Source of the DNA: an uncultured Gammaproteobacteria bacterium
Lineage (GTDB): Bacteria > Patescibacteriota > Patescibacteriia > UBA9934 > CAZDDW01
Direction of reading: 5' to 3'
Length of the DNA stretch: 64,000 bases
NCBI GenBank assembly: GCA_965231015.1
Contig: OZ246408.1
Span: 793,908 to 857,907, forward strand
Of the stretch, positions 6,222-33,870 are shown piece after piece. The translations under genes were made by a program, and so were the position numbers. The stretch's first letter is position 1, and the number at the start of each line of letters is the position of its first letter. The notes under the pieces are model-generated. The model was not told the DNA's origin and searched no databases. It was given only the letters and a program-made list of their open reading frames with translations.

Positions 6222-6875
6222 ATGAGCAAACCTGGAGGAAAACGGTATAAAAGGACACCGCTCGAGAAAATAAATGGACCTACTCCACAGCTTAAGCCGG
6301 TGGACATTATTTTGGTTCATCATAAACAAAGTTTGTTTCGTTTTTTTCTGCGCATGGTCACGGATTCTTACTGGGATCATGCCGCGCTGGTGATGTACCC
6401 CCGCAGTTCTAAAAACGAAATGCTCTACTCGGTAATTGTTGAGTCAATCCGGCCGGGGTTAGCCGGGCTGGTTGGCTCACGTGGTGTAGCTTTGCACCGA
6501 CTTGATAAATATTTCAACGAACCTCACCGATACGACGTGGGAATTGTCCGGGTTGAAGGTTTATCAAAAGAAGAGCGTGAGGAGGTTCGTTTGTTTATGC
6601 TAACCAATGTTGATGCCCCATACTGGCCGTGGCACTATATTGAAATCCTTCTTGCGGCCATGCTTCCACCTCTACGCTACTGGATTTTGCGTCGACAAAG
6701 ATTTAGCTGTTCTAGCTTGATTCAAAAAGCTTTCTTTGATGCATTGGGTGATAAATACAAATCACGTGTTGTTTTTAAAGAAGGGGTTTGGTCCCCAATT
6801 GAACTAGAAGAGCTGACAAGCCCGGGTGATATTGCTCGCAGTAAAAACATTAAATGGATCTACAATAAACATTAG
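6222..6875 (+). CDS. Putative permuted papain-like (YiiX/NlpC-P60-like, His-then-Cys order) hydrolase, paralog 1
   Basis: Conserved SYWDHAALV ... FSCSSLIQKAF pattern; paralogous to the next gene. Confidence 0.5.
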   Translation: MSKPGGKRYKRTPLEKINGPTPQLKPVDIILVHHKQSLFRFFLRMVTDSYWDHAALVMYPRSSKNEMLYSVIVESIRPGLAGLVGSRGVALHRLDKYFNEPHRYDVGIVRVEGLSKEEREEVRLFMLTNVDAPYWPWHYIEILLAAMLPPLRYWILRRQRFSCSSLIQKAFFDALGDKYKSRVVFKEGVWSPIELEELTSPGDIARSKNIKWIYNKH

Positions 6876-6876
6876 C

Positions 6877-7515
6877 ATGAAACCAGAAACCTTGAAGAAA
6901 AAATGGCCGGTTATTGAAGAACAGTTGGAAACAGCTGACATTTTGTTGTTTCATAAACGAAAGGGTCCAATAACAAAACGGATTCAGGAGGGTACAGGAA
7001 GTTATTGGAATCACATTGCCCTTATCTTTAAACCAAAATCCGAGATGCCAATCGGAGGGCCACTCATTGTTGAAGCAGCCTACAGCGGTATTGAAATTCA
7101 TCAACTAAAAAAATACACTGACCGAACTTTGTTATATGACATTGGAGTGCGTCGTTTTCCAAACTTAACAGAAAAACAAAAACAAGACATTGTCTTGAAT
7201 TTTATTTTAAAAAACTTGGATCAACCGTACGACTACAGTCGATTGGTTGGTCTATTTCTGGCCCCTCTTTTGGTACGTATTTCTCCAAAAATCCTACTCA
7301 AGGCCACGGACTATTTTATTCATGAAAACGCTTTTTTGTGTTCCACCTTTGCCATGAAAGCTTTTCAGCAAATATCAGAAAAACAAAATAAGAGCAAATC
7401 CTTTACCCAACACTTGGGTGTTCAACCCAAGAAAAAACACCGCCAGGAACTTTTTGCACCTGCCGATATTGCTGATTCAGACATGTTTGAGTGGATCTTC
7501 AATGAAAAACATTAA
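6877..7515 (+). CDS. Putative permuted papain-like (YiiX-like) hydrolase, paralog 2
   Basis: SYWNHIALIF ... FLCSTFAMKAF; ATG at 6877 placed 1 nt after the paralog 1 stop (the track start at 6826 is an in-frame extension). Confidence 0.5.
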   Translation: MKPETLKKKWPVIEEQLETADILLFHKRKGPITKRIQEGTGSYWNHIALIFKPKSEMPIGGPLIVEAAYSGIEIHQLKKYTDRTLLYDIGVRRFPNLTEKQKQDIVLNFILKNLDQPYDYSRLVGLFLAPLLVRISPKILLKATDYFIHENAFLCSTFAMKAFQQISEKQNKSKSFTQHLGVQPKKKHRQELFAPADIADSDMFEWIFNEKH

Positions 7516-7534
7516 AAAATACTGCGAATAGACT

Positions 7535-8968
7535 CTATAAAGATTCCACCAAGACCGGTGTGGAACTGATTGGAACCGTAATTGGTCCATTTTCATTTTC
7601 TAAAATTTCAACCTCAAACATTATTTCCTCATCCTCAAAACTGGGAACTGTTTTTATGACTCGAACCTCTGCAAGAGACAGGTCAAGCTCATAGTTGTCC
7701 TCAAACGGACTCCAAAGCACGTAACGATCACCGTCCAAAGTCTTGAACCGATAAACCCACACCCCGGTCTTGGCTTCGTAATCCCCCTCCGAAATCACTT
7801 CAACCTCCTCAAACGGAATTAACTTGCTCGTAAGAAGTTGGTATGAATAGTATGACAGCTTTTCAATTCCGGCATAAGAAAGTAAGCCATAATCACGCCA
7901 CATATTGTCCGGGCTTGGCGGAGAGCTCACGTGGGTGTGCCAGGCTACGAGCTCTGCCCCGGCTCCATAAAGAATAACCAACCTGCGCCAGACATCAGCC
8001 GCCTGCTCCTCCGGTGAATTTGGATAACTGGTTCGGACACTTAACGTTGGATCCGAGGTGACCCCGGTTTCCGTAACCCAGATTCGGGGATCAGATTCAT
8101 ATTCTGACACAACCTCGTAAACCTGATTATATTTATGGGGCAAAGTCCACCATGGACCATAATCATGAAAAGAAAAAACATCAAAAGTACCAGGTTCAGT
8201 TTTTTCAAGTGTTATGGCAAGTTCTGACAGGTTGTAATCACTAACCCCACCAAGTCCGGGATAAATTACCTGTCCGTCCGGGTCCTTCTCATGTACAAAA
8301 TCAGCCACAAATTGTAAAAACAAAACTCGATCTTCAGCAGTATAATCACCATCATCCGGCCCAATAATTCCGGAGGTTAATGGATCTTCAGCGTAACGCC
8401 GCCAATGAGCAAGTTCATTACCCGGCTCCCAATATTCAACGTAATCTTTAAACCGAACAACCGTGTTGTTAAGGTAATCAAGATGATCCTCATTACCCGG
8501 CTCCATCCAAACTTCTGACCAAGGAGGGGTAGCCGAGGCATACTGCAGGTTGTGCAAATCTCCCACATTTACCAGGTTTGACTCTGACTCAAAATATTCA
8601 ATGGTTGGATCAAAAAACCACTTATTGTCATTTGGTTCAATCTGGTCCCAATACATTCCGGAACCAACTATTTGTCGTGACAGTTGGGCCCCAAGCCTTT
8701 TAAGATCTGCCAAAACCCAAGCCACTTCTTCAATCTCGTCCGGTATTGCCGGATCCCCGTGTGTTTTAATGAAATTCAGACCGATCTGTGGCGAATGAGC
8801 AGTGGTGTCGCGCAGAGTGATCAACCTGTCAGATGAATACTTTCCAGAGGTCATGACTACTTCATGATTTGAATCACTAAAACCAAAACAACCGGCACCA
8901 AGTAGGCTCAGGCCGGACAAAAGAAAAAACAGACCAATTATTTTTGTGCGAAATGGTTGTAAACCCAT
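7535..8968 (-). CDS. Clan GH-A (TIM-barrel) glycoside hydrolase lipoprotein
   Basis: Lipobox LLGAGC; catalytic acid/base motif YWEPGNE and nucleophile motif IWVTETG. Confidence 0.7.
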   Translation of the reverse strand: MGLQPFRTKIIGLFFLLSGLSLLGAGCFGFSDSNHEVVMTSGKYSSDRLITLRDTTAHSPQIGLNFIKTHGDPAIPDEIEEVAWVLADLKRLGAQLSRQIVGSGMYWDQIEPNDNKWFFDPTIEYFESESNLVNVGDLHNLQYASATPPWSEVWMEPGNEDHLDYLNNTVVRFKDYVEYWEPGNELAHWRRYAEDPLTSGIIGPDDGDYTAEDRVLFLQFVADFVHEKDPDGQVIYPGLGGVSDYNLSELAITLEKTEPGTFDVFSFHDYGPWWTLPHKYNQVYEVVSEYESDPRIWVTETGVTSDPTLSVRTSYPNSPEEQAADVWRRLVILYGAGAELVAWHTHVSSPPSPDNMWRDYGLLSYAGIEKLSYYSYQLLTSKLIPFEEVEVISEGDYEAKTGVWVYRFKTLDGDRYVLWSPFEDNYELDLSLAEVRVIKTVPSFEDEEIMFEVEILENENGPITVPISSTPVLVESL

Positions 8969-9201
8969 ACAAATATAGCCGCAAAAATCCAAGCATAGAC
9001 AAACGCCTCAACCAAAACAATCGCCACTCCGGCAAAATTAAGACTTTGATAACCAGGGGCAAGAATCTGGATGAACTGGTTGTGATAAGCTCCAAGTTCA
9101 CTTGAACCAAGCACGGCCTGATGAACTAAAATACCGATATTTAAGAGCCCGTAAACAACCACCGAAGCCCAACCGAAGCCTTTTAAAGATAGTTTTTGCA
9201 T
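8938..9201 (-). CDS. Small two-helix membrane protein (87 aa)
   Basis: ATG at 9201; hydrophobic segments; overlaps the start of the GH gene by about 31 nt. Confidence 0.35.
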   Translation of the reverse strand: MQKLSLKGFGWASVVVYGLLNIGILVHQAVLGSSELGAYHNQFIQILAPGYQSLNFAGVAIVLVEAFVYAWIFAAIFVWVYNHFAQK

Positions 9202-9269
9202 ACGAATACATAATAAACTCGGTTGACTGTCTTGGCAAGCCTGAAACAAAATGAGATAATAGGAGCCGT

Positions 9270-9956
9270 ATGAGAATAAATCCCTTGGCAATTTTTTATG
9301 CGGTGGTCGTGATTGCGTGTGCGGTTTTATTGGTTGTAAACCCGGACATGATTATGTATCAAGAATTTTTTCTTGGAGGGGTCATTCTGACAGCTCTCTT
9401 AATTTTCGGGTTTACAATTCAACAAATTGGATGGAGCAAGGCGCTATATATTTTTGTACTGGCCGCTGGGGTTGGTTACGTCATGGAGTATTTGGGGGTC
9501 AATGACGGTCAGGTGTTTAGCAATTATTATTATACAGATTTTCTGGGTTCGAAAATCGGGGGTGTTCCGTACTTGATTCCAATCTCCTGGTTTACGGCCT
9601 TAATGACCGCTTTTTTGGGTGCTCGACTGATCCTTGGATTTGGGAAACGTAAAAGTAAATTAATACTGTTTTCTTCTGCTTCTCTCCTAGCTGTGATTTA
9701 TGATTTACCGATTGAGTATATGGCCAAGCATGTCTGGCAGTCTTGGGTTTGGCTGGACGGAGGGATTTTCCTTGGGGTACCGCTCCTAAACTTTATCGGC
9801 TGGTTTGTGGTGGCCTTTATAGTTTTCGGGCTCGGTGCTGGAGCATGGCGCAGCCTTAGCAAAACCGCCCGCGGTTACCGCGAGCTACAAATTGTTTGCT
9901 TTAGCGCCTTCGGTTTGACTTTATTCCACGTCGTGCTCGACTTGCTGGCTAAATAA
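9270..9956 (+). CDS. Polytopic integral membrane protein (possibly DUF422 / carotenoid-biosynthesis-associated family)
   Basis: SD AGGAG 5 nt upstream; about 6 TM helices; family assignment from memory only. Confidence 0.6.
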   Translation: MRINPLAIFYAVVVIACAVLLVVNPDMIMYQEFFLGGVILTALLIFGFTIQQIGWSKALYIFVLAAGVGYVMEYLGVNDGQVFSNYYYTDFLGSKIGGVPYLIPISWFTALMTAFLGARLILGFGKRKSKLILFSSASLLAVIYDLPIEYMAKHVWQSWVWLDGGIFLGVPLLNFIGWFVVAFIVFGLGAGAWRSLSKTARGYRELQIVCFSAFGLTLFHVVLDLLAK

Positions 9957-9965
9957 TTTACTACG

Positions 9966-10030
9966 ACTTTTTCGTACCTACGAACAAACAATATACCCCG
10001 ATTCGTTCGAATAGAGGGTATATTGTTTGT
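9966..10030. repeat. Palindromic element copy: ACTTTTTCGTACCTACGAACAAACA followed by a 15-bp inverted repeat (ACAAACAATATACCC/GGGTATATTGTTTGT) enclosing an inner ATTCG-tt-CGAAT hairpin
   Basis: Direct reading; 25/25 identical to the core at 33834..33858. Confidence 0.75.
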
Positions 10031-10106
10031 GAATCATTTTCACTTTTCCATCTACGCTAAAGCTTCGGTGGACAGGCGTGCGAAAGACCCCATATAAAAC
10101 AAGAAA

Positions 10107-10137
10107 CCCGCCCGAGTAAAGACCCGGACGGGTTAGT
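10107..10137 (-). terminator. Imperfect hairpin (AACCCGcCCG...CCGGaCGGGTT) followed on the minus strand by a T-rich run; terminator for the doc operon
   Basis: Stem-loop plus T tract in minus orientation. Confidence 0.35.
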
Positions 10138-10145
10138 ATTTTACT

Positions 10146-10174
10146 CTAAATCTCCCGAATCTCCAGCATGTTTA
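10146..10174. repeat. 29-bp direct repeat (left copy) duplicating the last codons and stop of pyk (encodes MLEIREI*)
   Basis: 27/29 identity with 10904..10932; both mismatches are synonymous in the pyk frame. Confidence 0.75.
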
Positions 10175-10175
10175 A

Positions 10176-10592
10176 TTATAGCTCCACTAAATACTTACGC
10201 AAAAATTTCTCTATTCCGAGCACCACCTCATCTTTTAAAGTTGACGGGCTTGAGGCGACCCAAACAGCAAAATTGTAAAACTCAACCTCATCGACCTTGA
10301 TCCATTTTCCGTTTTTATACAAAAAGACCAAAAGTGTGGTCATGGCAAGACGTTTATTACCATTTTGAAACGGGTGATTCTTAACCATTAAATAAAATAA
10401 AATCGATGCCTTGCCAAGCAGACCCCGATAAACAACCCTTTTCTGAAAACGCTGAAATGGTACGGCCAAACATCCTTCGAGCACTCCGGCAAAACGAGTT
10501 CCAAAATCTGGAATGGGTTCATTGAAATTTAAAGCTTCCTTAGCAAAAGTATGTGCCACCTGTTCAACTTCAGCCAGGCTAATGGGTTTCAT
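10176..10592 (-). CDS. doc: Doc-family (Fic-fold) toxin
   Basis: Doc signature HPFQNGNKR (HxFx(D/N)GNKR); 138 aa; 1-nt gap to the upstream HTH gene. Confidence 0.85.
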   Translation of the reverse strand: MKPISLAEVEQVAHTFAKEALNFNEPIPDFGTRFAGVLEGCLAVPFQRFQKRVVYRGLLGKASILFYLMVKNHPFQNGNKRLAMTTLLVFLYKNGKWIKVDEVEFYNFAVWVASSPSTLKDEVVLGIEKFLRKYLVEL

Positions 10593-10593
10593 A

Positions 10594-10845
10594 TTACTCT
10601 GCCCCTAACATTTCAAGCGTCTGACCATATTCACGAACTGTCTTTCGCACGGCCTGTTCAATCATTTTCTTTTCTTTGGCACTTATCTCTTTTCCAACCA
10701 AAATTTTAACTTCACTCTCTGGAATCATAAAAGATCGACCAAGCCGCTTAGCCTTGATCTGTCCGCTGGTAATTTTTTTATTTACTGCAATCCGACTAAT
10801 CCCAAGTAAATCTGCCACTTCTTGAACCGAGTAATATTCCTTCAT
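10594..10845 (-). CDS. HTH (excisionase/MerR-like HTH_17-type) DNA-binding protein, putative antitoxin partner of Doc
   Basis: YYSVQEVADLLGISRIAVNKKITSGQIKAKRLG helix-turn-helix; ATG at 10845 preferred over the TTG at 10878. Confidence 0.7.
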   Translation of the reverse strand: MKEYYSVQEVADLLGISRIAVNKKITSGQIKAKRLGRSFMIPESEVKILVGKEISAKEKKMIEQAVRKTVREYGQTLEMLGAE

Positions 10846-10870
10846 ACTATTGTTAACTTTATTGTTCAAG

Positions 10871-10904
10871 GTTAACAATTGTTAACCTCTTTGTCAATAT
10901 TGAC
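10871..10904. promoter_or_regulatory. Two perfect palindromes in the doc-operon promoter region: GTTAACAATTGTTAAC (10871..10886) and GTCAATATTGAC (10893..10904); putative autoregulatory operators
   Basis: Exact dyad symmetry immediately upstream of the antitoxin start. Confidence 0.5.
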
Positions 10905-10932
10905 TAAATCTCCCGAATTTCGAGCATGTTTA
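10904..10932. repeat. 29-bp direct repeat (right copy) = authentic pyk 3' end
   Basis: See 10146..10174. Confidence 0.75.
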
Positions 10933-12292
10933 CTTTGCGGCCGGCGGGATGGCTCGCAATTACTACGACTTTGTCGCCTGCTCGAACAAGTTTAGCTAGT
11001 TTTAAAAGTCGAGTTGCCCGTTTGATCAAATCATCTGTCTCATAATCCATTTTAAGCGAATACGGCTGCACAGCCCAAGACAGGTTCAGCTGGTGGCGAA
11101 TAAATTCAGTTGAAGCAATAGCCACGATGGGGATTTCAGGGCGGAAGCGGCTGACCATGCGGGCAGTTGCTCCAGAGTTAGTGAGTGCCAGGATCATTTT
11201 TGTTTTCAAAGTTTGAACCATGAGTGAAGCAGCACCGCTCACCGAGTCCTTAACCATCTCGGCCAGCTGTGAGCTTTCTTCGAGCGTAACGTCATCATAG
11301 TGTGACGCTTCAGCTTCCTCGATTATTCGAGTCATGGTTTTTACAGCTTCCACCGGATACTTTCCCGTGGCAGTTTCACCAGAAAGCATAACCGCGTCCG
11401 TATGATCGATCACCGCGTTGGCTACGTCAGAAACTTCGGCGCGTGTTGGTCGTGGATTCCTGATCATTGAATCGAGCATTTGCGTGGCCACAATTACCGG
11501 CTTAGCTGCCGCACGGCACTTGTCAATGAACTCTTTTTGCAAAATCGGCACACCTTCAGCTGCGGTTTCGATTCCTAAGTCTCCTCGGGCTACCATGATC
11601 GCGTCTACTGACTTTAGAATCTCATCGAATCGATCCACGGCTTCGTGTTTTTCGATCTTGGCAATCACCTTGGGCAAGGGTTGATCATCCTTGGCGGCCG
11701 AGCGCAGAATACGCCGCATCTTTTTTACGTCCGCCGGATCTGTGACAAACGACAAGGCTACATAATGCAACTTTTGCTCAACACAAAACTTAGCATCTGA
11801 TTTATCCTTTTCTGTAATGGCCGAGATACTCAAATTGGTTTCCGGAAAGTTGATGCCTTTATGAGAGGTCAAAGTTCCCCCGACCACAACTTTAAATTTC
11901 AAAAATCCCTTTCGCCCACTCACAATCTCCCCTTCCATCAACCCATCGTCAAGCAAAATAGTATGACCCTTTTTCACATCCTTGTATAAATTTTCAAACG
12001 TCACCGGCACCTCAATGGTTTTTCCACGTTGTAGCTTGACTCCCTTTTCAGGCAACTCACCCACCCGAATCTTCGGACCCTGCAAGTCGCCAATAATTGC
12101 CACCGGATGCTTGAGCTCGCGAGCTACGGAGCGAATATTACGGATTAATTTTTTGTGATCAGCGTGTATACCATGCGAAAGATTAAGCCTGGCCACGTTC
12201 ATGCCGGCTCGGACCATTTGCTTGAGTTTAGATGCAGAATGACTGGCCGGACCAATCGTGCACACTATCTTTGTTCTTTTTTTACTGGGCAT
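10904..12292 (-). CDS. pyk: Pyruvate kinase
   Basis: Canonical PK motifs (IVCTIGPAS, MVARGDLGIE); ATG at 12292 (MPSKKRTKIV). Confidence 0.9.
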   Translation of the reverse strand: MPSKKRTKIVCTIGPASHSASKLKQMVRAGMNVARLNLSHGIHADHKKLIRNIRSVARELKHPVAIIGDLQGPKIRVGELPEKGVKLQRGKTIEVPVTFENLYKDVKKGHTILLDDGLMEGEIVSGRKGFLKFKVVVGGTLTSHKGINFPETNLSISAITEKDKSDAKFCVEQKLHYVALSFVTDPADVKKMRRILRSAAKDDQPLPKVIAKIEKHEAVDRFDEILKSVDAIMVARGDLGIETAAEGVPILQKEFIDKCRAAAKPVIVATQMLDSMIRNPRPTRAEVSDVANAVIDHTDAVMLSGETATGKYPVEAVKTMTRIIEEAEASHYDDVTLEESSQLAEMVKDSVSGAASLMVQTLKTKMILALTNSGATARMVSRFRPEIPIVAIASTEFIRHQLNLSWAVQPYSLKMDYETDDLIKRATRLLKLAKLVRAGDKVVVIASHPAGRKVNMLEIREI

Positions 12293-12293
12293 A

Positions 12294-13529
12294 TTAAAGA
12301 TCATCAGGGGTTACTTCTTCTAAGATGGCGGACATTAATATTTCCTCTCCGGCACGCATAACAAGAAGGCTCACAGTATCTCCCGGATCGAACTCATTAA
12401 TGATTTGAGCCAAAGTCTTGTCCGTGTTGACCGCCTGTCCGTTAATAGAAATTATAATATCTCCCTCAACTAACCCGGCGGCTTCAGCCGGTGAACCCGG
12501 CAGGATAGCCGGCTCATTTTCCCCAGTACCAGCCACCACGAGTGCTCCCTCGCTCACGGATAATCCGTTTTCTTCAGCCACAAACTCATCAATCATCAAA
12601 TAACGCACCCCAAGCCATGGCCGTACAATTCGACCGTGCTCCAACACATCACTCACCACTTCCTTGACCGAGTTGACCGGAATAGCAAAGCCGATTCCCT
12701 CACCCGAACCACTAATGGCGGTATTTATCCCGATTACTTCTCCAAGGAGATTAATGAGTGGCCCACCAGAGTTTCCTGGATTAATGGCCGCATCGGTTTG
12801 AATCGCTTGCTCAATTACTTGACTCGAACTAAAGTCACTAGCCAGCACCCGACGACCCAGCCCGGAAACCACCCCCTTGGTAACAGTATTCTGATATTCG
12901 GACAGAGTATTACCAATAGCAATCACGGTCTGACCAACGCGTAAATTGTCCGAGTCACCAAGAATAGCTACTGGAAAACTTTGGCCGTCTGTTTCCTCTT
13001 GATTAATCTGAAGCACGGCCAGATCCAAGAACAAATCTTCAGCCAGCACTGTAACTGCGTATTCCTCTCCGTCATTGGTTAAAATACTGTAAACCGCATC
13101 CGGGTCACTAACCACATGCTTATTGGTTATAAGAAGCCCTTCACTTGAGACAAACACAGCCGTACCACCTCCGACTTCAATAAGCTCACTCTCCAGAGAC
13201 TCTGTGTCCTCAGCTTCAAAATCATAAAAATAATAATCCGAGGCCTCAATAGTAAAAACCTGTTTGCGAACCACCACACTAACCACTGATGGTATGACTT
13301 GATTAACCACGGCAATAGTGGCTGTTTCTTCCTCTATGAGATCCACAATTTTGCGCTCTAAGGCCTCTTCTTCGCTCATGGGTAGAATATCCACTCCAAA
13401 TTGATCTGAAAGCTCCTGAACCAAATTTGAACGTTGAAACATTGAATAACCGGCCAAAGACCCAAAGAAAGCACCAATAACCGCTGAGATAGCAAGGACA
13501 AAAATTAGTAGTCCGGCTCGTTGAGTCAT
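12294..13529 (-). CDS. htrA: HtrA/DegP-family trypsin-like serine protease with a PDZ domain, N-terminal membrane anchor
   Basis: Catalytic GNSGGPL, His (TNKHVV), C-terminal PDZ. Confidence 0.9.
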   Translation of the reverse strand: MTQRAGLLIFVLAISAVIGAFFGSLAGYSMFQRSNLVQELSDQFGVDILPMSEEEALERKIVDLIEEETATIAVVNQVIPSVVSVVVRKQVFTIEASDYYFYDFEAEDTESLESELIEVGGGTAVFVSSEGLLITNKHVVSDPDAVYSILTNDGEEYAVTVLAEDLFLDLAVLQINQEETDGQSFPVAILGDSDNLRVGQTVIAIGNTLSEYQNTVTKGVVSGLGRRVLASDFSSSQVIEQAIQTDAAINPGNSGGPLINLLGEVIGINTAISGSGEGIGFAIPVNSVKEVVSDVLEHGRIVRPWLGVRYLMIDEFVAEENGLSVSEGALVVAGTGENEPAILPGSPAEAAGLVEGDIIISINGQAVNTDKTLAQIINEFDPGDTVSLLVMRAGEEILMSAILEEVTPDDL

Positions 13530-19818: not shown

Positions 19819-20808
19819 TCAATTTAAGGTACCTGAACCGACCGGGTCATATCCAGAGTTAACCTCATCACCGTCCGCATATCCATCCCCGTCTGTATCT
19901 ACGACAAGCGGAGAACTGCCATATACTTCTACCTCTTCCCCGTCAGTCAAGCCGTCACCATCGGTATCCGGATTGAACGGATCTGTATCAAGATCCAATT
20001 CTTCCCCATCCATTAAACCGTCTCCGTCAAGATCAGGATTAGTATCGTCCATGCCAAGTTCAGCCTCCCGGTCACTACTAACCCCGTCTAAATCAAGATC
20101 AGCTGGACCCACGCGATCGTAACAACCCTCAATCAATTCTTCCGGTAAAACATCACACAAACTTGGGTCACGCACCGTGATAGCGTTTTGGATCGTGATT
20201 TCAGCTTTGCAATAACTTTCATTGACACCGTTCTCTGCACACGTTCCTGCGCGCATGATGGTTGGTAAAATTTGAGCCTGGCAAGAGGCCACCCATTCCG
20301 GATCAGTTAATTCTTCCTCACACCGGGCGTAATCTTTTTCTGCCACAATAAGTGGTAATAAAATGTGATCATAACAGGCCTCACGAGTTTCTTTATCAGT
20401 AATTGCATCGCAGTCTTCCGGATTACCCTTTTCCCGAGCCACCGTTTCCACACAGGCCACAAATGATTCTCCTTCTAGCATTTCACACACAGCGAGTGCC
20501 GAGGTCTTGGAAGCCTCCCGAGTAATAGTTCGCGCCTCACAAGCGGCCGGATCTTTTGCTTCAGCACATTCAGACAACTGACCGGCTAATCGTTTTTCAG
20601 TTTCTATTAAAGTTTGTTCATTCATCTGTCGCTCGTCAATATTGTGCGAGATGTTTCGTACAATAACCACTGCCACAATGATAATAATGACAGCCAAAAG
20701 AACCGAGCCGATGATAATAGCAATGGTTCGAACCGAAAGACCTCCGGATGGTTCCTGTCCTTCACCTTCCGGAACATACTCGTAAAGTTGTGGTTCTTGT
20801 TCAGCCAT
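19819..20808 (-). CDS. Single-pass membrane protein with Cys-rich central region, four TSP3-type repeats and C-terminal [12 protein letters not shown] motif
   Basis: [36 protein letters not shown] repeats; about 18 Cys in the middle section. Confidence 0.7.
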
Positions 20809-20811
20809 ACT

Positions 20812-23800
20812 TTAGAACGGACAGTAATTCATTTCAATATTTGTTAGATTCACGGTTCCCGTGCCTGGGAAACTAATTCTAAACGGCACAGTAAACTCTT
20901 CGTCTGATTCCGGACACTCGAAACCGATTGGGAATAGCAACGGCTGACTATTCCCTTCGTTCATAGTTCCGCTTGAAGTTCCGGCATCAGTGGTATAAGT
21001 GATATGTTTTCCAATAATGGATTCCACAATAGCCTCGTACATATCACGTAAATCTTCGGCGGTTTCACTTGAATAAGCATATTCGATTCCATTGTTTGAA
21101 GGTGAACAATTATCCGCATCAGAAATATCATCCGGTTCATCTCCTGAACAAACATCCGGCATAATTCCGGCTCGTTCACAAACATCACTCGACCAGTGGG
21201 CCATATAACCCTTAAGACTGCTTGATCCGGTCAGGGCAGCAGTATACAAATCCAAAGTTCCGGTTTGCCCCTCACAATCGCGTTTCAAACGCCGAGCCCA
21301 TTCGTCTACCGTGTTTTCACCATCTCCGGCTGTCGGGCTACCATCACTTAATAATACCACCACCTGAACCGTGTCTTCCGGAGCCGGATTTTCCAGCTCA
21401 TTATAAACCGCCTCCAGACCCTCTTCCGGGTAAGTGCTTCCGGATGCGCTGTAAGCATTTACTGTATTGATAAGTGAATATTCATCTTCAGAGGTAGACA
21501 AATTATAATCGATATTACCGGTACCAGGGCTACTAAAGCTAGCTAATCCAATTTCAATGGTTCCATCTTCAAAGGAATCAAACAGTTCTCCAATAGCATC
21601 AATGGTCGCTTCTTTAGCAACATCGAGCCTAGAATCTGAACCATCGAGTAATTCATTCATACTGGTTGACAAATCCATAATAAAGAACACTTGAACGTAT
21701 GGTGGAGTGACTCCAGCGAATGACACATCTGCAGTTAAACTGGATCCAACCCGACAGGCTGGGAAGTACATTAAAGCGGTGTCAGGTGAATCACCGGAGC
21801 CGAAACTATACAGGTCAACTGAATCTGTTTTTAGTGAACCCTCTTCTTCGGCCTCAACCTGGACGGACACACTGGAGAGTGAAAACGGACAACCGGACGA
21901 ACAGTTATCATTACACTCAGGAGCTACACAGGTACCAAGAGAAGTGGTCGGGGGAAACGAGAACGGATTCTGTCCACAATTATCATCGTAGTCGGCAATT
22001 CCAGCGTTGACATCACACGGAACTCCGTTGAAATCTTTTAACTCATCATCAATTGTTCTGTACCCACCATTACAATAACCGGCCGGAGCACACTCGTATA
22101 CTTTATCAGCTATTCCATCCCCATCGTCATCACACAAATCATTGTTATCACACAAATCCTGACAATCTAGAAAACTGTCACAGGCGCCGGAAATATCTCG
22201 CCGGTCAGGGTCTTCATCTTTTAAAATACAATAATTGATTGGCATATCCGTGCCATCACAAAACTCACTTCCGTTAACCTGATCGTCACCACAGTAACCA
22301 CCGCTCATGGTTTGGTACTGACAACTGGCCGTACAGTAGTTACAGCTTCCGCCGTACGGCGCTTCACACGGCACGGCGTTCCCGGCACCCCAGTCACAGG
22401 CTTCAATTCCATCATAACGCTTACCGTCTCCACAAACATTAAACAAGCAGGAAGTAGTGCACTCATCATTGTTATCATCATTTCCATCATCACACTCCTC
22501 TGTTCCTTCTGTTACCCCGTTTCCACAATACCCAGTTCCAATACAGCTCTCACCACCAATTTCGTCCCAACCACCCACAAAATGGCTTGAGTCAGCCTCT
22601 GGCCAAAAACAACCTGTACCAGCAGCGATGTCAGAGTCACACACACGGGTACGCATAGTTTCAAATTCAAAAGTTGAGCATGTGCCATTGGCACATTCTC
22701 CGTCCGTCTGACACGGCTTACCAATTTCGTCTCCGGTATCACACAACTGTGAAGATTCACAGGCTTCATAACCACTGACATTACCACACGTTCCACCCTC
22801 ACAATCATCATCAATTTCACATGGCTCTCCCTCAAGTGACCCTGACGAACAAATCGCGCCGTCCCAAGTCTCTGACTCACCATCACACTCTTCTGATCCG
22901 TTTACTACTCCATCGCCACAGCTTGGTGGATCTCCGGCACAATTAAAGGCACAGCCCTCATCTGGGTCGTATGAATAAATTCCGTTTACGTACTGACAAC
23001 TATTGGCCACGGCCCAAGCACCACTCGTACGAAAATCTTCGTTGTAACCACAGTCACACACTTCACTTCCGGCCAAAGTTCCGTCTCCACAAAAAATTGC
23101 TCCATCAACGTCACAGTCGAGTCCACAATATCCGTACTGACCATTGAAAGCTCCATCATCACACTCTTCTCCATCATCAACAACTCCGTTTCCACAAAGG
23201 TATGGAGTACAAGACGAAGCAGAGTCAGCCGCTTCTTGATATGCGGAACAGTCTGCACTACCACTTACAGCACAGTTTCCACTGTAACAACAAGTGACGG
23301 TTTTTTGACCTTCTATATATGTACAGGTTCCTCCTCCGCAATCAATTGAGTCATTACACGGGTCACCGTTTGAACAAACCCCACTGGCACACTCACCATC
23401 TGCTCCACAGGTGGCAACTACGTCTCCGGCCGGATCACAAACGGTTCCATAATAACTTGATTCAACATCATTAAAACAGATATATACTTCACCCGGATCA
23501 CAATCCACGGTTTGTGTGTCTCCAATTTCACAGGTCTCATTTTCACCCACCACTCCATCGCCACACTCTTCGGAAAGACCAAGTTCGGTTCCATCACAGA
23601 AAAGAGAAGTAGTAAATCCATCCGGATTAGATTCAGACGCATTACCAACGGTAATTTCAGCCCAATCTGTGGTGTCCTGGTCTAGATCATAAGCCCAAGG
23701 AGCGCCATTATATTCTAAATCAACAAACAACTCGTAAGCTTCCCCGGCTATGGAGCGGAAGCCATAGACATGTGAGCCTTCATTGCAAACAAACTGCGAA

Positions 23801-26800
23801 GCGTCCCCGTTCCAACAACTGGTTTCATCATAGCCCTCCGGACAATCGGCTAAATTATTAAGTGGGTCCGTTGGCAAAGCGGCACCCAAATTATTTCCCA
23901 GCTGAGCCTGCCAACTTGGCCAAGCACTATAACTGCGGGAACGTAAAAAACTTCCCACTTGCAATTCCGGTACGGTCTGCACACAAGTTTCACCCCCCGG
24001 ACAGTTATCGTCCACAAAACAGGCCATGGTTTTTGTCACTGAACAACGGCTATTGGTGCTACCGTAGGTATCAATCTGTCCGTACATGCTGCGCAAATCT
24101 GACAAGCGTATAGTGTCACGCTGCAACATTTGTTTTTGTGCTCCACAAACCGCATCGGCTCCGTACTCAAAACACTCGGCGTCATAACTACATTCAGCTA
24201 ACTGTAAACCGTCCGTAGCATTATCAGTATCGATCGGGTTTGCGTAGGCGTCGGTTTCATAACAAAACTCATCATCAAGCAAAACATCATTGGCATTGAA
24301 TGCCCAGCTATCAAGCACTTGCTCAAACACTTCCAAAGTTTCATCCTCTGCCCCTTCATTGTAGGCAATGGCATAAATATTAGAGTAAATGTCCCCGGTC
24401 TGATTGGCCGCATTAACATAAACCGTACGACCGTCCTGAACCGCTTCGTAACCATCCACATCATCGGTTGAAGAATAAGATCCGTCAAAGTTGGCATCGT
24501 ACCAATCACCTGGCGAGTAATAATCCTCGTTGCCAGCAATCCTGACACCAACCGCATCGGTGTAATCATCCCCATCAATCATAAACAGTAACTCACGGAA
24601 TACTCCGGAAGTGGTTTGTGGATTTGGTGCCTCGACCACCCTCATGTTTGGTAGATCATCGCTCGTATCAGCCGCGTCTCCGGCGTCCCGACAATAATAG
24701 AAAGAGAAATTAGAATATGGGAACGGACTGCCAAGATCGGTTCGTACGGACGGACCAAAATCTCCAAGCCCCAGACCCTCAAAGGCGGTATCATATTCTT
24801 CAGTATCAGAAAAAGGGAACGTGCCCACTTGTGGCCATGGATTTTCACACAAGAAGACCATCTCTTCAACCGAACCACTGATTACCTCTCCGGTAGTGCT
24901 TGGATCGTTAAACGAGTCGGATGTCACTGTAGCAGAAGCCACAATATCCTCTTCACCGTTTTTAGATTCAGCAACCGCGTCATTGAGGTCAGTTGTCGCG
25001 GCCGGGTCAGATAAATTTAAAACTGATCCATCTCCGGTTATACCCCAGCTCCAGGTCCAATCATAATAACCGGCAATTGGCGTAATTTCTTCCCGAACGT
25101 TATTACGGATTGTATATGCCGCAGCTTCGAGGTCATGACTTTCAGCCGCTTCAGTAAAGAGTCCTGGACTTGAAGACTTGTCTTCCACTAACACGTCTTC
25201 AAGCTCACAAACCTCAGTTCCGGTCTTGAAACTTGAAGCTAAAAGTTGATTTGCCTCAAAACCATAAAGAGCGTCAGTGATAGTCGGTCGGATAGTGATG
25301 CCGTACTGTGTGGTTACTCCAATGTTGTAAGCAGCCTCGGTATTATCATCCTGCAAATCCTGATCACCTACCACCACCAACCGGTACAAAGAATTCTCTT
25401 CAAGTGGTTGTGAGTAGGTAAAAGTGACCTCGGTACTGCTTTCAGATAAATCATTAGACAGGGTGCCCTCCATGTAACAGACAACGGGATCCTGGGCATA
25501 CACCTCGCGACCGAACAAGCCAGCCACCTTATTAGCCACAAAACGCCAAGCCCGGACGTACCACGGACGATCACCTTCATGTAAAGCAACCAAACTTTCT
25601 TCATAACCGGACGGACAATCACCGGTTTCAAGATCAGCGTCAGGCTGTGCTTCACCGTCCACCAACACTCCTGAACCAAGATAAATTAAGAAAATGTTGT
25701 CCACGGTTTCATTACCAACCTGGACGCGGAAAGACTCAGTATCCATTAAGGAATCAAACTCAGCACTAACCGAGGCGTTACGACACACGTCTTCCCGAGC
25801 ATCTGGAGCAAAAGTGGCGGTTGGTCGATCAGCACAACAACCACCAAAACCACAACCGATCGTAGTATAAGTCGCGACGCCACAATCAAGATCTTCCTCA
25901 CAAGAACAATTGACACCAACTTCAGCTTCTCCGGTAGCTCCGGTGCCGGTTTGACTGTCCGTTCCTTCAGCTCGCAGATCCGTCATGATTGGATTTTCAT
26001 CCAAGACAACCGACGCTTCGATCGCCCCCTCAGATATTTCAGCCACCTGGAACGGATCAATTAAACCGTCCCCGCCGGCCAAAGCGGCTTCACATTCTTC
26101 ACCTGTTCCATAATTGCCATCACCACAAAAAGATGGAGTTGAGTATTCGTGATTTGATCCCTCAAAAAGACCGTCATCAGAACAACCTTCATCAGCTGGA
26201 TCACACTCACCGCTCTCATTCAAACACCGCGAACTGCAACCATCTCCATTCGTTCCATTTCCATCATCACAGTCTTCCCCGTCCTCCCGAGTGCCGTTAC
26301 CACAGACAGCTGTAATTTCGGTTGCATCAAGCGAACCCTCATTTAAACAAATATTGGAACAACCGTCTCCGGAACTATTATTTCCATCATCACACTCCTC
26401 ACCCCCTATAGCATCATTGTGCAAAATAATTCCGTCTCCACAAACTGTGCCAGCGTAACCTGAACCCTCGTTTGTACAAACACTGGAACATCCGTCTAAA
26501 TCATCATTGTTGCCGTCATCACATTCTTCAAAACCATCCATTGATCCGTTTCCGCAAGTTCCGCCATCAGCCACAGCGGCAGTTCCCTCGGTCGTACAGG
26601 TAGCACTACAACCGTCTCCGTCCAGTGGTAAACCAGGGCCGTCATCACAGTCTTCACCAAATTCTTCTACTCCGTTACCGCAAACCGATACTCCGTAATC
26701 ACTTCCCTCGTTCAAACAAAGGCTGGAACATCCGTCCGGAAGTTCACGAGTGGTATCAAGGTTTGCTGGGGTAAAGAAAGCAATCTCGTAATTGTCTGGA

Positions 26801-29800
26801 ACCGTATTATCAATCTCCCAGTTCCAAGCATAGTCATACGCGTCAAGCCGTTGACCGGATGGTGAACACTCGTCCGGTCCGCCGTAAGCAGTGGCTTCGT
26901 AGGCTTGTTGAGCCCCGATTCGATCCAATACTTCACGTTCAGGATTTACTTCAACACGTTCAATACCACACGGAGCAGAATCGGCTTTAGTTTTAAAAAT
27001 CCACTCTTCATCTCCGGAAAGCCCGGTACCACTAAGACTCAACACCCCTTCTACCTGATCAGTTGTTGATGGATCATCACCGGAAATCCGCACCAAATAG
27101 TAAGTATCTTCTTCCAAATCACTTGGCGGACTCAAAGAGATTGACCAATCCCCGGCGTTGTAATTCAGTGTTCCGCCCACCACTTCCGTAGTTCCCAAAT
27201 TACAAAGCGCGTCGGAACACTCATACAGCCGAACATTGCCGTTGAAGCTGGACGAATCCATATCCAAATTAAAGGTCGCGCCAACCACAGCGTTGACACA
27301 AGCCTCTTCACACTCAGGCCATCGGTCTTCTACCCGAGGATCTTCAAAATTGACCTGAATGTCAGAGCTATCTCGTAAATTTTCATCCGTGATCTCGGCA
27401 GTGAGCTCAACCACATGACCGGGTTCAGTTTCAGATTCTGCCTCAACATTATAGGTATCAAAATCAAGCGAGACTAAATCAATAATGTCATCCCAGTCAG
27501 TGTTACCTGTATGCTCAGCATACCAGGTCCACACATCTCCCGGGGTATACAACACCTGACATCCTCCGGCTCCGATTGCGGAAGCATCAAAGTCGCTGTT
27601 TTCTTCAACGAAGGTGTAACTCTTTTCCGGAGGCAACAATAGCACACTCTCTATTTCACAGTCTGAGGTATCAGTCCTGGTCTGAAACTGCCACTCGTAA
27701 TCCGTTTCTAAGGGTTCTCCATCAGGACTTGTAATGCCTCCGATTCCACCAACGAGCGTCACCTGGTACCAAGTACTTGGATCAAAGACGGTACCGGCCG
27801 GCGATGAAATCCACTGGAAAGTGGTGTCAAACTTATCATCAAATTCTCCGTCAACAGTTTCTAAATCAGAACAAGGATCATCCGGATCCAGCCCGACACA
27901 TTTTTCTACAATGACGGTGCTCGTGGTGATACTTGCAAGCTCCACTCCGGGATCAGTTTCAAAAGAACCCTGCACCATTGAATTTACACAAACTTCCTCA
28001 CCGTTCGGCCAGGCTGTGTATGGCGTTGGGCTAATCCAATCATCAGAACATTCAACAATGAGTTGTGGAGCGTCCGGAATTTCTCCGGTAGAAAAACGCC
28101 AAAGGTATTCTGATTCCGGGATAGTTTCACTTGGACAAGTGGCTCGACACGCTCCATCATCACAACAAGTTTCACCTTGTGCGCACTCCGCTCCCCCATC
28201 AAGACAACTAGCCACTTCAAAATTAATCGTGTTTGAGGCAGTACCACCATTATCATAAAGTGTGACCGGTCCGGTGGTAGCTCCGGAAGGCACTTCTACT
28301 CGAACCTGTTCGCCATCACCTCCCCAATAATCAATGTTGGTTACGGCTACCCCATCATAAAAATCAACCGAGCCCTGCACGCTTCCAAACCGTTCACCAT
28401 AAAGATCAACCAACAGGCCCTCCGGACCGTTAGTCGGATCAATGGCACAAATGCTTGGCCCCGGACTGCCACTTGTTACCGTAAACTCGGCCTCATTACT
28501 TTCAGCACCATCATCACGCTCAATCCAAATTGCGGCTGAGCCTCCATCAGCCCATTCCGGTACCTTCATTATAATATTGTCATCCGCCCACCAATTGCTG
28601 GCACAGGCGTCTGGAAAATCAACATCAGCAACATCTGTTGCTCCGGTGGAATCCCTAAACCAAACAATGCCACCCGGCGGATCGTCGTCAAAATTTTCTC
28701 CGTAAATTGTTACGTATTGTCCAATAGGTCCGGTGTCTCCATAGTCTTCACAGGCACCAAAATTACATGGCGTATCATCACCTATTGTACAACCGGTCAC
28801 TGTTGGATCATTGGAACAATAATTTGGTACGTCCAAAGTACAGGTTCCAGCACAATCACTGTCAGCACTACAAGCTAAATCCGTGTTGTCGGCACAATAA
28901 TCAAGACCGGAATCAACATAACTGATGACCGGAGTCTCTTGTTCCGTCTCTGAGCTAACCGTAAACTGAACCGTGTTTGAACCATTCCCTTCTACAAAAA
29001 CCTGAACCTGATAATTACGAGCTGATACTTGAGGAACCGGGAAGCTAATACTTTCATCATTCCAATTTTGATACTCACTTGGTTCGTATCCGGTATTTCC
29101 GTAAAGAAGGTAAAGATTGTCCTCGGTCGTACCGAAATTTTTACCCGTGGCTACCACAATATCGTCCGGCAAACCACTTTCCGGATTAACGTCACACATA
29201 CTTGGTCGCACAGTACCATCTTCCGTGAAATCAATAATGACTGGGCCACGGTCATAATCATCGGTTCGGTCAGACAAAGGACCGTCAGCTTCAGCCGGCT
29301 CAGTCACAATTATGATCGGCCCGTCAACAAACCCGTTTGGTACCTCTACCACCACCTGAGTGCTGGTCCACGGATCAGCACAGTCAGCCACTAATGCCTG
29401 TACGTCATCATCATCTCCTTCTTCATCACCGTCCCCGTCCGTATCCGCTCCTAAAAACCAAACTTCTCCTTCTGCGTCATTAAAATATTCTCCTGAAATT
29501 GTAATGTAGTTTCCTGAGGTACCCTGGGTTGGTGAAACATAAGTTATTTCCGGATACCCAACACAAGTTCCCTCCTCACAAATTCCACTGGCACAATCAC
29601 CGTTTTCCGTACAAGATTCACCATCACAAGATAGACAATCATCTCCACCACAATCTACTCCGCTTTCGTCTTCGTCCTGCACACCGTTGGTACAGTGAGC
29701 AACCAAAGCGCTCACTGTAATGGAATCCGATAAAGTAGAGCGGCCGGAACAGTCATAGGCACGCGTACTCAAATTGTGTGAACCAAGAGAGGGCTCCGTC

Positions 29801-30798
29801 CAGTTGGCACTGTAGAGATCTGGCTCGCCAAGATTCAAAACCACTCCGTTGTCTTCAAATGAACTGTCAACGTAAAACTTAACCCGGTTGATTCCACCGT
29901 CGTCTGTGGCAATTGATTGCATAAGTGCCAGTTCTCCTACCGGAACTGAACCCCCATCATCCGGGTACGTCATCTCAACGGATGGGTCAGAGGTATCAAT
30001 TAAGTCCCCGGTGGTAAAAGTTGATTGACAGTCTTCACCCGGTGAACCACAGGTAATTAGCTCGCCACCGGTTTCTTTTAGACCGGCTCCGATTTGAACC
30101 GTGTAAGTAGTATTGGCATCAAAACAAAATTCAGCAGGGTCTTCCGGACAAACCGCTGACGGGGTAAACATAACCTCATCATCTTCAGTGTCAAAAGTTC
30201 CATCCACCGGATCACCAAGCGGATCCTGAATCTGGATGTTGCTGGCAATCGTAGAGGTGTCAACAGAATTATTAAATAAAATAGTGACCACTACATTTTT
30301 ATTTGGTAGATCACCGGTAGCACAACCATAACTCTCAATAATAAATTCATCATAAATCGGTGGGTTATCACCCGGATCCCAAGGGTCATCCCCCTCCTCC
30401 CCGGTTCCGGTGCCACCACCTACCGCGTCTACTAAAGAAGAAATAACAAATGTGGTAATGGCCCAGGCAGACATGATGATAACCATGCCAATTACAGCAT
30501 TCACCAACACCTTTTTAGCTTTACTGATTTTTTCCGCCTGACCACCTGAAGTCATCCACAAAAATCCGCCATAAATAATTAGGCCAAGCAAAACCACGCC
30601 GGCAAAACTGAGAGCGGTACGGATGAGTCGCGCCACTACAACCCGAATGTCAGCCTGAGCGAACCCGGCCTGTTCGGCAAACTGCTGAAACGCTGTTTCA
30701 TCAACCGGACCTTGAGCCAAGGCCTCGGTTCCAACAACCAAACCAAAGAGCGTAAGCCCGATGATCATGATCCAATAATTTTGGCGGATATATTTCAT
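20812..30798 (-). CDS. Giant (3328 aa) cell-surface protein: N-terminal pilin-like hydrophobic domain, Ig-like/IPT-TIG domains, myxococcus-type Cys-rich repeats (CGNG..ECDDGN), C-terminal von Willebrand factor A domain
   Basis: Uninterrupted 9987-nt ORF; IPT-like [22 protein letters not shown]; at least 4 CxxGxxExGExCDDGN repeats; vWA MIDAS DLSTSM...LLSDGSPT. Confidence 0.85.
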
Positions 30799-33833: not shown

Positions 33834-33870
33834 ACTTTTTCGTACCTACGAACAAACACCGTACCCCCCC
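33834..33870. repeat. Palindromic-element family copy: ACTTTTTCGTACCTACGAACAAACA + CCGTACCCCCCC (25/25 identical core to 9966..9990)
   Basis: Direct reading. Confidence 0.75.

Follow-up and report, generated by a model that had tools for sequence, protein, structure and literature searches.

We analyse here the 3' end of pyk, the pyruvate kinase gene, in a 64-kb stretch of contig OZ246408.1 (the window hereafter, always at its full 64,000 nucleotides), together with a set of comparison contigs denoted by L-numbers (L001 etc.). Directly behind pyk lies a cassette of two genes, a candidate antitoxin with a helix-turn-helix (HTH) domain and a Doc (death-on-curing) toxin, and this cassette is bracketed by two copies of the last codons of pyk. 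On balance, we consider the repeat to be probably a recombination scar. Two pyk alleles, one with the cassette and one lacking it, would have exchanged DNA, the one side being anchored by homology and the other joined illegitimately at the motif TAAAC. The parts of the locus on which this reading depends all lie on the minus strand:

10904..12304, minus strand: pyk, pyruvate kinase of 466 aa with the C-terminus NMLEIREI-stop (PF00224, 371 bits, and PF02887)
10904..10932, minus strand: right 29-mer, the end of pyk that is in use, TAG stop included, with the derived synonymous states CTC GAA
10170..10174, minus strand: TAAAC, the 5 nt with which the left 29-mer opens, also a conserved motif after the Doc stop; microhomology at the proposed joint
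10146..10174, minus strand: left 29-mer, an untranslated and apparently displaced copy of the native pyk terminus, with the ancestral states CTG GAG
10138..10145, minus strand: AGTAAAAT, a post-stop flank that appears native to the cassette-free pyk allele (compare TAG-AGCAAAAT in L009 and L018)
10095..10134, minus strand: intrinsic terminator with a 13-bp stem and a T-run; the homologous hairpin CCCGGGTCTTCACTCGGG adjoins Caroten_synth in L009 and L012

The repeat pair consists of CTAAATCTCCCGAATCTCCAGCATGTTTA at 10146-10174 and CTAAATCTCCCGAATTTCGAGCATGTTTA at 10904-10932, with 27 of 29 positions identical and a spacing of 758 nt. A preliminary description of this DNA had reported two such direct repeats around a two-gene module, and had held the right copy to be the real end of pyk and the left copy to encode the same peptide with two synonymous differences; coordinates and identity are confirmed, and the minus strand indeed reads so, since the left copy would encode NMLEIREI-stop as the right one does, the differences CTC/CTG and GAA/GAG both being synonymous. 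The worry voiced there, that the repeats might be a common terminator motif, is not borne out. With at most 3 mismatches, the 29-mer is found in the whole window at these two sites only, and no match appears in 100 shuffles. In a repeat search of the window the pair is extendable to 32 nt with 91% identity, and in a targeted comparison of the cassette flanks it scores 23, the best of 300 shuffles reaching 13. An independent Logan assembly (L001, from SRR7048221) has the same junctions base for base, which makes an artefact of assembly unlikely. The look-up of the Doc protein gives a 100% identical Logan contig as its sole match, and an exact look-up of the pyk protein gives no match. In the functional copy, the sequence next after the pyk stop is TCAATATTGACA. 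The left copy is a relic with no evident function, and that it stands in frame after the Doc stop codon is regarded as a coincidence. The strong intrinsic terminator behind it, at 10134-10105, is the original pyk terminator, which now ends the pyk-HTH-Doc transcript.

Homologues of pyk show that the window comes from Candidatus Uhrbacteria-like Patescibacteria. The local order FtsA-FtsZ-NrdR-MGMT-HtrA-pyk, followed by a convergent Caroten_synth-like gene (car), is conserved in relatives, and the synteny htrA-pyk-Caroten_synth is kept in L002, L009, L010 and L012. The collections searched hold no relative closer than 90% pyk amino acid identity; L009, L018 and L020, with 90% in pyk and 72-74% nucleotide identity to the window in htrA, serve as the outgroup. 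In these three, pyk ends in NMLEIREI-stop with a single copy of the terminus, continues as TAG-AGCAAAAT, and has no Doc or HTH gene behind it; after AGCAAAAT come a hairpin/promoter, an unrelated 73-aa open reading frame (ORF) and the homologous terminator adjoining Caroten_synth. An empty site with one 29-mer, which the preliminary description had proposed to look for in cassette-free relatives, is thus found in L009, L018 and L020. In the more distant L002 and L010, pyk stands next to Caroten_synth, again with no cassette, and a metagenome scan for a degenerate pyk terminus returned L009-type contigs only and hence no closer relative. Relative to the outgroup, the cassette is an insertion. 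The left copy carries the codon states of the outgroup (xTG GAG) and an outgroup-like flank (AGTAAAAT vs AGCAAAAT), and then runs into the conserved terminator; the left copy, AGTAAAAT and the terminator together read as the native end of a cassette-free pyk allele.

The relative age of cassette and repeat is seen from a sister lineage. Nucleotide identity of the window is 81% for htrA and 80% for car with L012, vs 72-75% with L009, and the window and L012 are taken as sisters because of this higher identity. L012, L013 and L014 have the same HTH and Doc cassette, starting within a few nucleotides of the pyk stop. On the 3' side of Doc, this lineage continues with TAA-GTAAAC, a promoter-like stretch common to L009, an unrelated 139-aa ORF and the terminator, and no second copy of the pyk terminus is detected in L012 (best flank score 9, inside the shuffle range). 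Between the window and L012 the p-distances at 4-fold sites are 0.60 for pyk, 0.54 for car, 0.59 for doc and 0.46 for hth, corresponding to a neutral divergence of about 1 substitution per site, which is the same for the cassette as for the flanking genes. Because doc and hth have diverged from L012 as much as their neighbours, the cassette has been at the pyk site since before the split from the L012 lineage. The repeat, by comparison, is much younger than this residence, since its two copies differ at 2 of 29 positions against near-saturated neutral sites (the pyk termini of the window and L012 themselves differ at 8 of 27), and a relic of the ancestral insertion would be unrecognisable by now. 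Given a young repeat and an L012 insertion that lacks it, the repeat is therefore not the footprint of the first arrival of the cassette.

The two differences between the copies show a clear polarity. L009 and L012 have G at both positions, as in the left copy, which places both changes in the functional copy and none in the neutral one. Duplication followed by drift would give such a distribution with a probability of about 0.02, and only about 3% of random pairs of changes would be synonymous throughout. From this polarity and synonymy, the simplest reading would be that the copies descend from two functional pyk alleles, each of them under selection.

The boundary of the repeat points to the manner of joining. 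Behind the Doc stop the window reads TAA-T-TAAAC and L012 reads TAA-G-TAAAC, while L035 has TAATTTATCTTAAAC and L046 has TAATTTTTTAAAC; TAAAC thus follows the Doc stop in four cassettes from different lineages, and in L012, L035 and L046 nothing pyk-like comes after it. Because it is present in these three cassettes, we assign TAAAC to the 3' end of the cassette. The pyk gene contains G-TAAAC-ATG 24 nt before its stop codon, and the repeat starts exactly at TAAAC. The start of the repeat can accordingly be read as a microhomology joint, and an illegitimate joint at a microhomology of a few nucleotides is what characterises the products of homology-facilitated illegitimate recombination (HFIR).

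In the favoured reading, a scar from two recombining alleles, a close relative would have supplied the cassette-free allele (pyk-TAG-AGTAAAAT-terminator). On one side ordinary homologous recombination would have taken place, either in pyk or on the terminator/Caroten_synth side; on the other side, the ends would have been joined illegitimately at the 5-nt TAAAC shared by the post-Doc-stop sequence and the pyk end. The product would be pyk with the cassette-linked terminus (CTC GAA), then the cassette, TAAAC, the last 24 nt of the other allele (CTG GAG), its native flank and the terminator. The exchange may have run in either of two directions: the cassette may have been imported along with the donor pyk end, with the anchor in pyk, or a cassette-free downstream segment may have been imported, with the anchor in the terminator or car, as an allelic replacement that stopped short of removing an addictive cassette. 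An element-encoded recombinase would not be needed in either case. Directly seen are the anatomy and the gene identities, the empty outgroup site, the repeat-free orthologous cassette of the sister lineage, the young age of the repeat, the microhomology and the lack of a recombinase or terminal inverted repeats; the two-allele origin, the donor and recipient roles and the route by which the DNA entered are inferred. Given the natural competence of Saccharibacteria (PMC10633639), transformation is a plausible route. Both HFIR and single-crossover insertion with duplication of a part of the homologous locus are documented outcomes, and in the E. coli HFIR assay single-crossover integration duplicating the homologous segment is the commonest class (PMC3240628). 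The window resembles these cases in having foreign DNA beside a homologous anchor, a microhomology at the second joint, no recombinase of the element and a partial duplication of the homologous locus, which such events can produce. It differs in that the case is deduced from a natural genome, in that the duplication is very short (24 nt plus the 5-nt microhomology), and in that the anchor tract is not visible for want of close relatives.

We also compared the flanks, with shuffles, at six further independent insertion sites of toxin-antitoxin (TA) modules, five of them with a Doc cassette and one with the HicA-type pair of L045. The clearest counterpart is found in L015, L016 and L017 (Uhrbacteria, with Doc 79% identical), where the cassette lies between a 96-aa ORF and a HAD hydrolase gene. 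Here it is flanked by a 35-nt repeat of 83% identity with a 19-nt exact core, scoring 20 against a shuffle maximum of 14, and the repeat is made up of the start codon of the downstream HAD gene plus its first nine codons. Compared with the HAD start of the relative L045, the displaced upstream copy, ATGAACTACAAAGCC..., agrees at 31 of 32 positions, and the gene-attached copy, ATGCCTTACCAAGCC..., differs at four. The polarity at L015 is the same as in the window, with the native terminus displaced and the derived terminus attached to the gene. At a Roizmanbacteria-type locus, L021, TTAAGTAAT and, after a 5-nt indel, CTACTTT occur both at the LytR_C stop and directly after the Doc stop (1660-1684 and 2420-2449); the score is borderline, and a third scar with a duplicated gene end may be present here. 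The repeats are imperfect at all three sites and 29, 35 and 9-16 nt long, and no core sequence is common to those of the window, L015 and L021. The scar is therefore recurrent and not universal, which fits an occasional illegitimate event and not an obligatory integration mechanism. L025 and L027 give the impression of two distinct upstream settings but are one and the same locus.

Some further observations concern these sites. Upstream of the cassette promoter in L015, the stretch 2652-2700 translates to ...GKTKLEIKEVEI-stop and resembles pyk C-termini (KLEIKEVEI-stop), with shuffle p values of 0.04 vs the window and 0.0095 vs L009 in two of four comparisons; we take this as suggestive and do not rely on it, but it would point to a move of the cassette out of a pyk-linked site together with a fragment of its flank. 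Farther upstream in the same contig (252-2566) are a 318-aa Fic protein, a 244-aa HTH_17/MerR protein and the 96-aa ORF. The 5' flank of orthologous HAD genes holds the Doc cassette in L015 (2617-3444) and a HicA-type pair (92-aa and 62-aa ORFs) in L045 (2995-3500), and would accordingly be a second hot spot of TA modules. The gap from pyk or the cassette to the terminator also varies in content: it holds the 73-aa ORF in L009, L018 and L020 (L009 2536-2963), the 139-aa ORF in L012 (3418-4068), and in the window (10095-10175) the pyk relic only. The two ORFs are unrelated to each other, both are preceded by TTGACAAGRCCGTG...TATRAT, and neither has a Pfam, NCBIfam or PADLOC match. This gap looks like an insertion hot spot for small genes.

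Several points weigh against the two-allele scar. A microhomology of 5 nt is short and could be a coincidence, though its position is exact. HFIR usually replaces recipient DNA, and a 24-nt duplication needs an illegitimate joint inside the anchor region. The available relatives stop at 90% pyk amino acid identity, so the donor tract in pyk or car is not visible; neutral sites are saturated against both L012 and L009, and the donor and recipient roles are unassignable. Competence has been demonstrated in Saccharibacteria, not in Uhrbacteria. Finally, of seven independent TA insertion sites (six with a Doc cassette, and the HicA-type pair of L045), four lack flanking repeats, namely L012, L025/L027, L035 and L045; L046 likewise shows no significant repeat, the repeat of L021 is borderline, and the generality of the scar is unproven.

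Among the alternatives, the one that survives best is a Campbell-type single crossover, which we hold to be rather unlikely. Here a circle of about 758 bp, made up of the cassette and one pyk terminus, would be excised from a cassette-bearing genome between the two TAAAC motifs and integrate into a cassette-free pyk terminus by recombination over short homology, with the help of RecA or of a recombinase that the host provides in trans; the cassette would then be mobile, though not autonomously so, and would bring a replacement gene end along. The circle junction would read Doc-TAAT joined to TAAACATGCTCGAA...TAG-TCAATATTGACA. This model predicts the topology that is seen, with the imported copy attached to the gene and the native copy displaced, and the same architecture recurs at another gene end in L015; single-crossover duplication is moreover the main outcome of the E. 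coli assay (PMC3240628), and the possible pyk relic upstream of the L015 promoter (p = 0.01-0.04) would be expected if a piece of the neighbour travels along. It nevertheless calls for two rare steps, an illegitimate excision and then a recombination over 24-29 bp of imperfect homology, and there is no evidence of a circular form. No route is known by which a circle of 758 bp would pass from cell to cell, neither viral contigs nor phages contain the cassette, its plasmid Doc homologues are distant (34%), and the L012 cassette has no repeat. A broader version, that HTH_17-Doc cassettes are minimal recombinase-less mobile units in Patescibacteria which take with them a short end of a conserved neighbouring gene (the pyk 3' end in the window, a HAD 5' end in L015) to serve as a portable homology arm or as an attachment site, we regard as improbable. 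If it were true, such cassettes would integrate by short-homology crossover and resist allelic removal via toxin addiction, and displaced native gene ends would be their diagnostic footprint.

Comparably improbable is a one-step insertion with templated duplication of the target, whether by fill-in of a staggered break or by template switching of the kind proposed for break-induced replication mediated by microhomology (MMBIR) or fork stalling and template switching (FoSTeS), with the copies drifting afterwards. A TAAAC microhomology at re-entry is typical of template switching, and the variation in repeat length (29, 35 and 9-16 nt) agrees with a mechanism lacking site specificity. Drift, however, should not place both changes in the window, and four of the differences in L015, in the selected copy and leave the neutral copy ancestral (the p of about 0.02 given above refers to the window). 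In addition, the cassette was at the junction already in the common ancestor with L012, so insertion and duplication would be separate events, and the AGTAAAAT after the left copy must derive from a cassette-free arrangement.

The preliminary description had read the repeat as the footprint of an integrative element that landed in the pyk end and brought a replacement 3' end, as islands that target tRNA genes do. Part of this stands, namely the insertion, the displaced native end and the imported end linked to the cassette. The landing by an integrase does not, in view of the orthologous L012 insertion with no repeat, the youth of the repeat, its start at the TAAAC of the cassette end, the absence of an integrase and of terminal inverted repeats, and the lack of a shared core. 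The underlying model, a minimal or decayed site-specific element with its attachment site in the pyk 3' end and its tyrosine or serine recombinase lost or located elsewhere, is in our view very unlikely. In its favour, direct repeats bracket the insert with single copies at empty sites, the target gene end is reconstituted, the outgroup has the empty site, and the antitoxin has an HTH of the excisionase family. Against it, the absence of an integrase noted in that description is confirmed: only HTH and Doc lie between the repeats, and a scan of 16 neighbouring ORFs, reaching about 10 kb to each side and covering lengths of at least 110 aa, gives no recombinase domain. An att core shared by independent insertions, and repeats in orthologous insertions, are not observed: the repeats at the L015 HAD 5' end and the L021 LytR_C stop have no core in common with the window, and the repeat of the window is far younger than the residence of a cassette that in L012 has none. 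The HTH protein, invariably paired with Doc over a palindromic operator, is moreover arranged as an antitoxin would be, not as a recombination directionality factor. Islands and prophages in the 3' ends of tRNA, tmRNA and protein genes are like the window in their flanking direct repeats, in a target gene that an imported end keeps intact, and in a native end shifted to the other side of the insert; they are unlike it in that the window has no integrase, no att core across sites, an insert of only 0.73 kb, a sister-lineage insertion lacking the repeat, and a repeat younger than the insert.

Other vehicles have also been considered. The cassette has no terminal inverted repeats at its ends, no target-site duplication of fixed length and no transposase, and so does not qualify as an insertion sequence or transposon. 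No attC-like palindrome of an integron follows Doc, where only TAAT, the pyk relic and the terminator are seen (no covariance-model search for attC was made), and no integron integrase is found near the cassette. The searches of IMG/VR viral contigs and INPHARED phages give no cassette homologues and those of plasmids only Doc genes of 34% identity, and no evidence of a phage or plasmid vehicle is found in them. The nearest case in the literature comes from Microcystis aeruginosa PCC 7806 (PMC7935541), where a ParE/ParD-like pair lies downstream of MaOC1, likewise a two-gene TA module placed directly behind a host gene and bracketed by direct repeats; those repeats are identical, intergenic, 152 bp long and have internal inverted repeats, unlike the imperfect 29-nt copy of a coding terminus in the window. 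Neither an HTH_17-Doc pair nor a TA cassette between duplicated gene ends is described in the literature that the searches returned. Lastly, chance similarity or an assembly chimera of co-existing strains is hardly credible: data of the metagenome-assembled type can merge strains, but the shuffles (0 matches in 100; flank score 23 vs a null maximum of 13) and the identical junctions in the independent assembly speak against both, and a 5-nt overlap cannot make a de Bruijn join, so that the junction Doc-TAAT-TAAACATGCTGG must exist in reads.

A second pyk-like repeat (9958-9987 vs 10960-10989, 77% over 30 nt) was considered as a nested insertion and rejected, its pyk match being only a 13-mer with E = 0.79. 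Its appearance near the Caroten_synth stop is due to a dispersed motif of 25 nt, ACTTTTTCGTACCTACGAACAAACA, exactly repeated at 9966-9990 and 33834-33858, both intergenic, where none is expected by chance; the palindrome TTCGTACCTACGAA lies within the motif, which may be an operator or else a repeat element of small size.

The genes and the control region of the cassette are the following:

10846..10903, minus strand: promoter/operator region by its predicted function, with a -35-like TTGACA at 10897-10892
10869-10888, minus strand: 20-nt perfect palindrome AGGTTAACAATTGTTAACCT, an inverted repeat with a 20-nt self-match
10849-10857, minus strand: third half-site GTTAACAA, a direct repeat
10594..10845, minus strand: antitoxin candidate of 83 aa with an N-terminal HTH_17/excisionase-family domain and a C-terminal tail of about 35 aa
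10176..10592, minus strand: Doc toxin of the Fic fold, 138 aa, with the motif HPFQNGNKR; it starts 1 nt past the antitoxin stop

The Doc protein matches PF02661 with 32 bits (cut-off 24) and TIGR01550 with 47.8 bits (cut-off 38.65), and its weak matches in the PDB are 9vzc and 3k33 (E = 1e-4 to 4e-3). The Doc-type Fic motif HxFx(D/N)(A/G)NKR is present, and H73, P74, F75, N77, G78, N79, K80 and R81 are invariant in 16 homologues. The homologues number 5819, many of them carrying the NCBI name death-on-curing toxin; the best 120 of the 5819 are 64-87% identical and come from Patescibacteria, Aminicenantes and Acidobacteriota, and this conservation across phyla argues for frequent horizontal transfer. 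In each of the 8 loci examined, the gene next upstream of the Doc homologue is an HTH gene. The antitoxin candidate of the window matches PF12728 with 37.9 bits (cut-off 27) and TIGR01764 with 41.1 bits (cut-off 28.8), both of the HTH_17/excisionase family, and in the PDB it weakly matches 4j2n, an Xis; a Phd/YefM fold was not found in it. By family membership the cassette is a type II toxin-antitoxin operon. It has a G+C content of 37-42% vs 46-52% for pyk, and no second Doc or HTH copy is present in the window.

The 20-nt palindrome overlaps the promoter-like site of the cassette, and the GTTAAC operator is conserved in L012, L015 and L021. The HTH_17 protein probably acts as antitoxin and repressor by binding the GTTAAC palindromes over its own promoter, which would thereby be autoregulated. 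Transcription is probably dual, from this operator-controlled promoter and by read-through from pyk, because the cassette sits between the pyk stop codon and the only terminator. An Rfam search of 9800-11100 gives only matches far below the gathering thresholds. The closest known system is Phd-Doc of phage P1, whose Doc phosphorylates EF-Tu and so arrests translation. The window is like it in its toxin, which matches TIGR01550 DOC_P1 and PF02661 with HPFQNGNKR and about 138 aa, in the antitoxin gene immediately upstream, and in the palindromic operator. It is unlike it in its HTH_17/excisionase-family antitoxin in place of Phd/YefM, in its chromosomal location in uncultivated Patescibacteria instead of a plasmid-prophage, and in its low identity to the solved Doc proteins. 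By analogy with P1, the toxin of the window would be expected to arrest translation via phosphorylation of EF-Tu.

Beyond the cassette, two features of the window may be mentioned. On the minus strand a single 3,328-aa ORF (20812-30798) lies downstream of a TSP3-repeat protein (19819-20808) and is presumably a giant surface protein, typical of the Candidate Phyla Radiation (CPR); on the plus strand two adjacent, slightly overlapping paralogues of Peptidase_C92 (YaeF/YiiX-like amidase) are found at 6222-6875 and 6826-7515. Further Fic-domain genes cluster near some of the loci compared, as in L015 above; in L010 the stretch 7480-9389, 2 kb past Caroten_synth, holds an HTH_3 gene together with a RhuM/Fic gene and a methylase of type III restriction-modification.

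The toxin family studied here is very large and already annotated, and the scar falls into a known class of recombination products; as it stands, the locus is an example of known processes and not a new mechanism. What is mildly new is a clean natural example in a CPR genome, and the polarity that is repeated in the window and in L015. How chromosomal TA cassettes move without mobility genes is only loosely understood, and the locus would record one such route in bacteria that are ultra-small, uncultivated and possibly competent. In it, the cassette keeps its linkage to the end of a conserved housekeeping gene, and a joint at a 5-nt microhomology strands the native gene end downstream. The same architecture in L015 suggests that the process recurs. 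Should a large survey bear the pattern out, gene ends stranded in this way could be a simple marker for the recent gain of a cassette, or for its failed removal.

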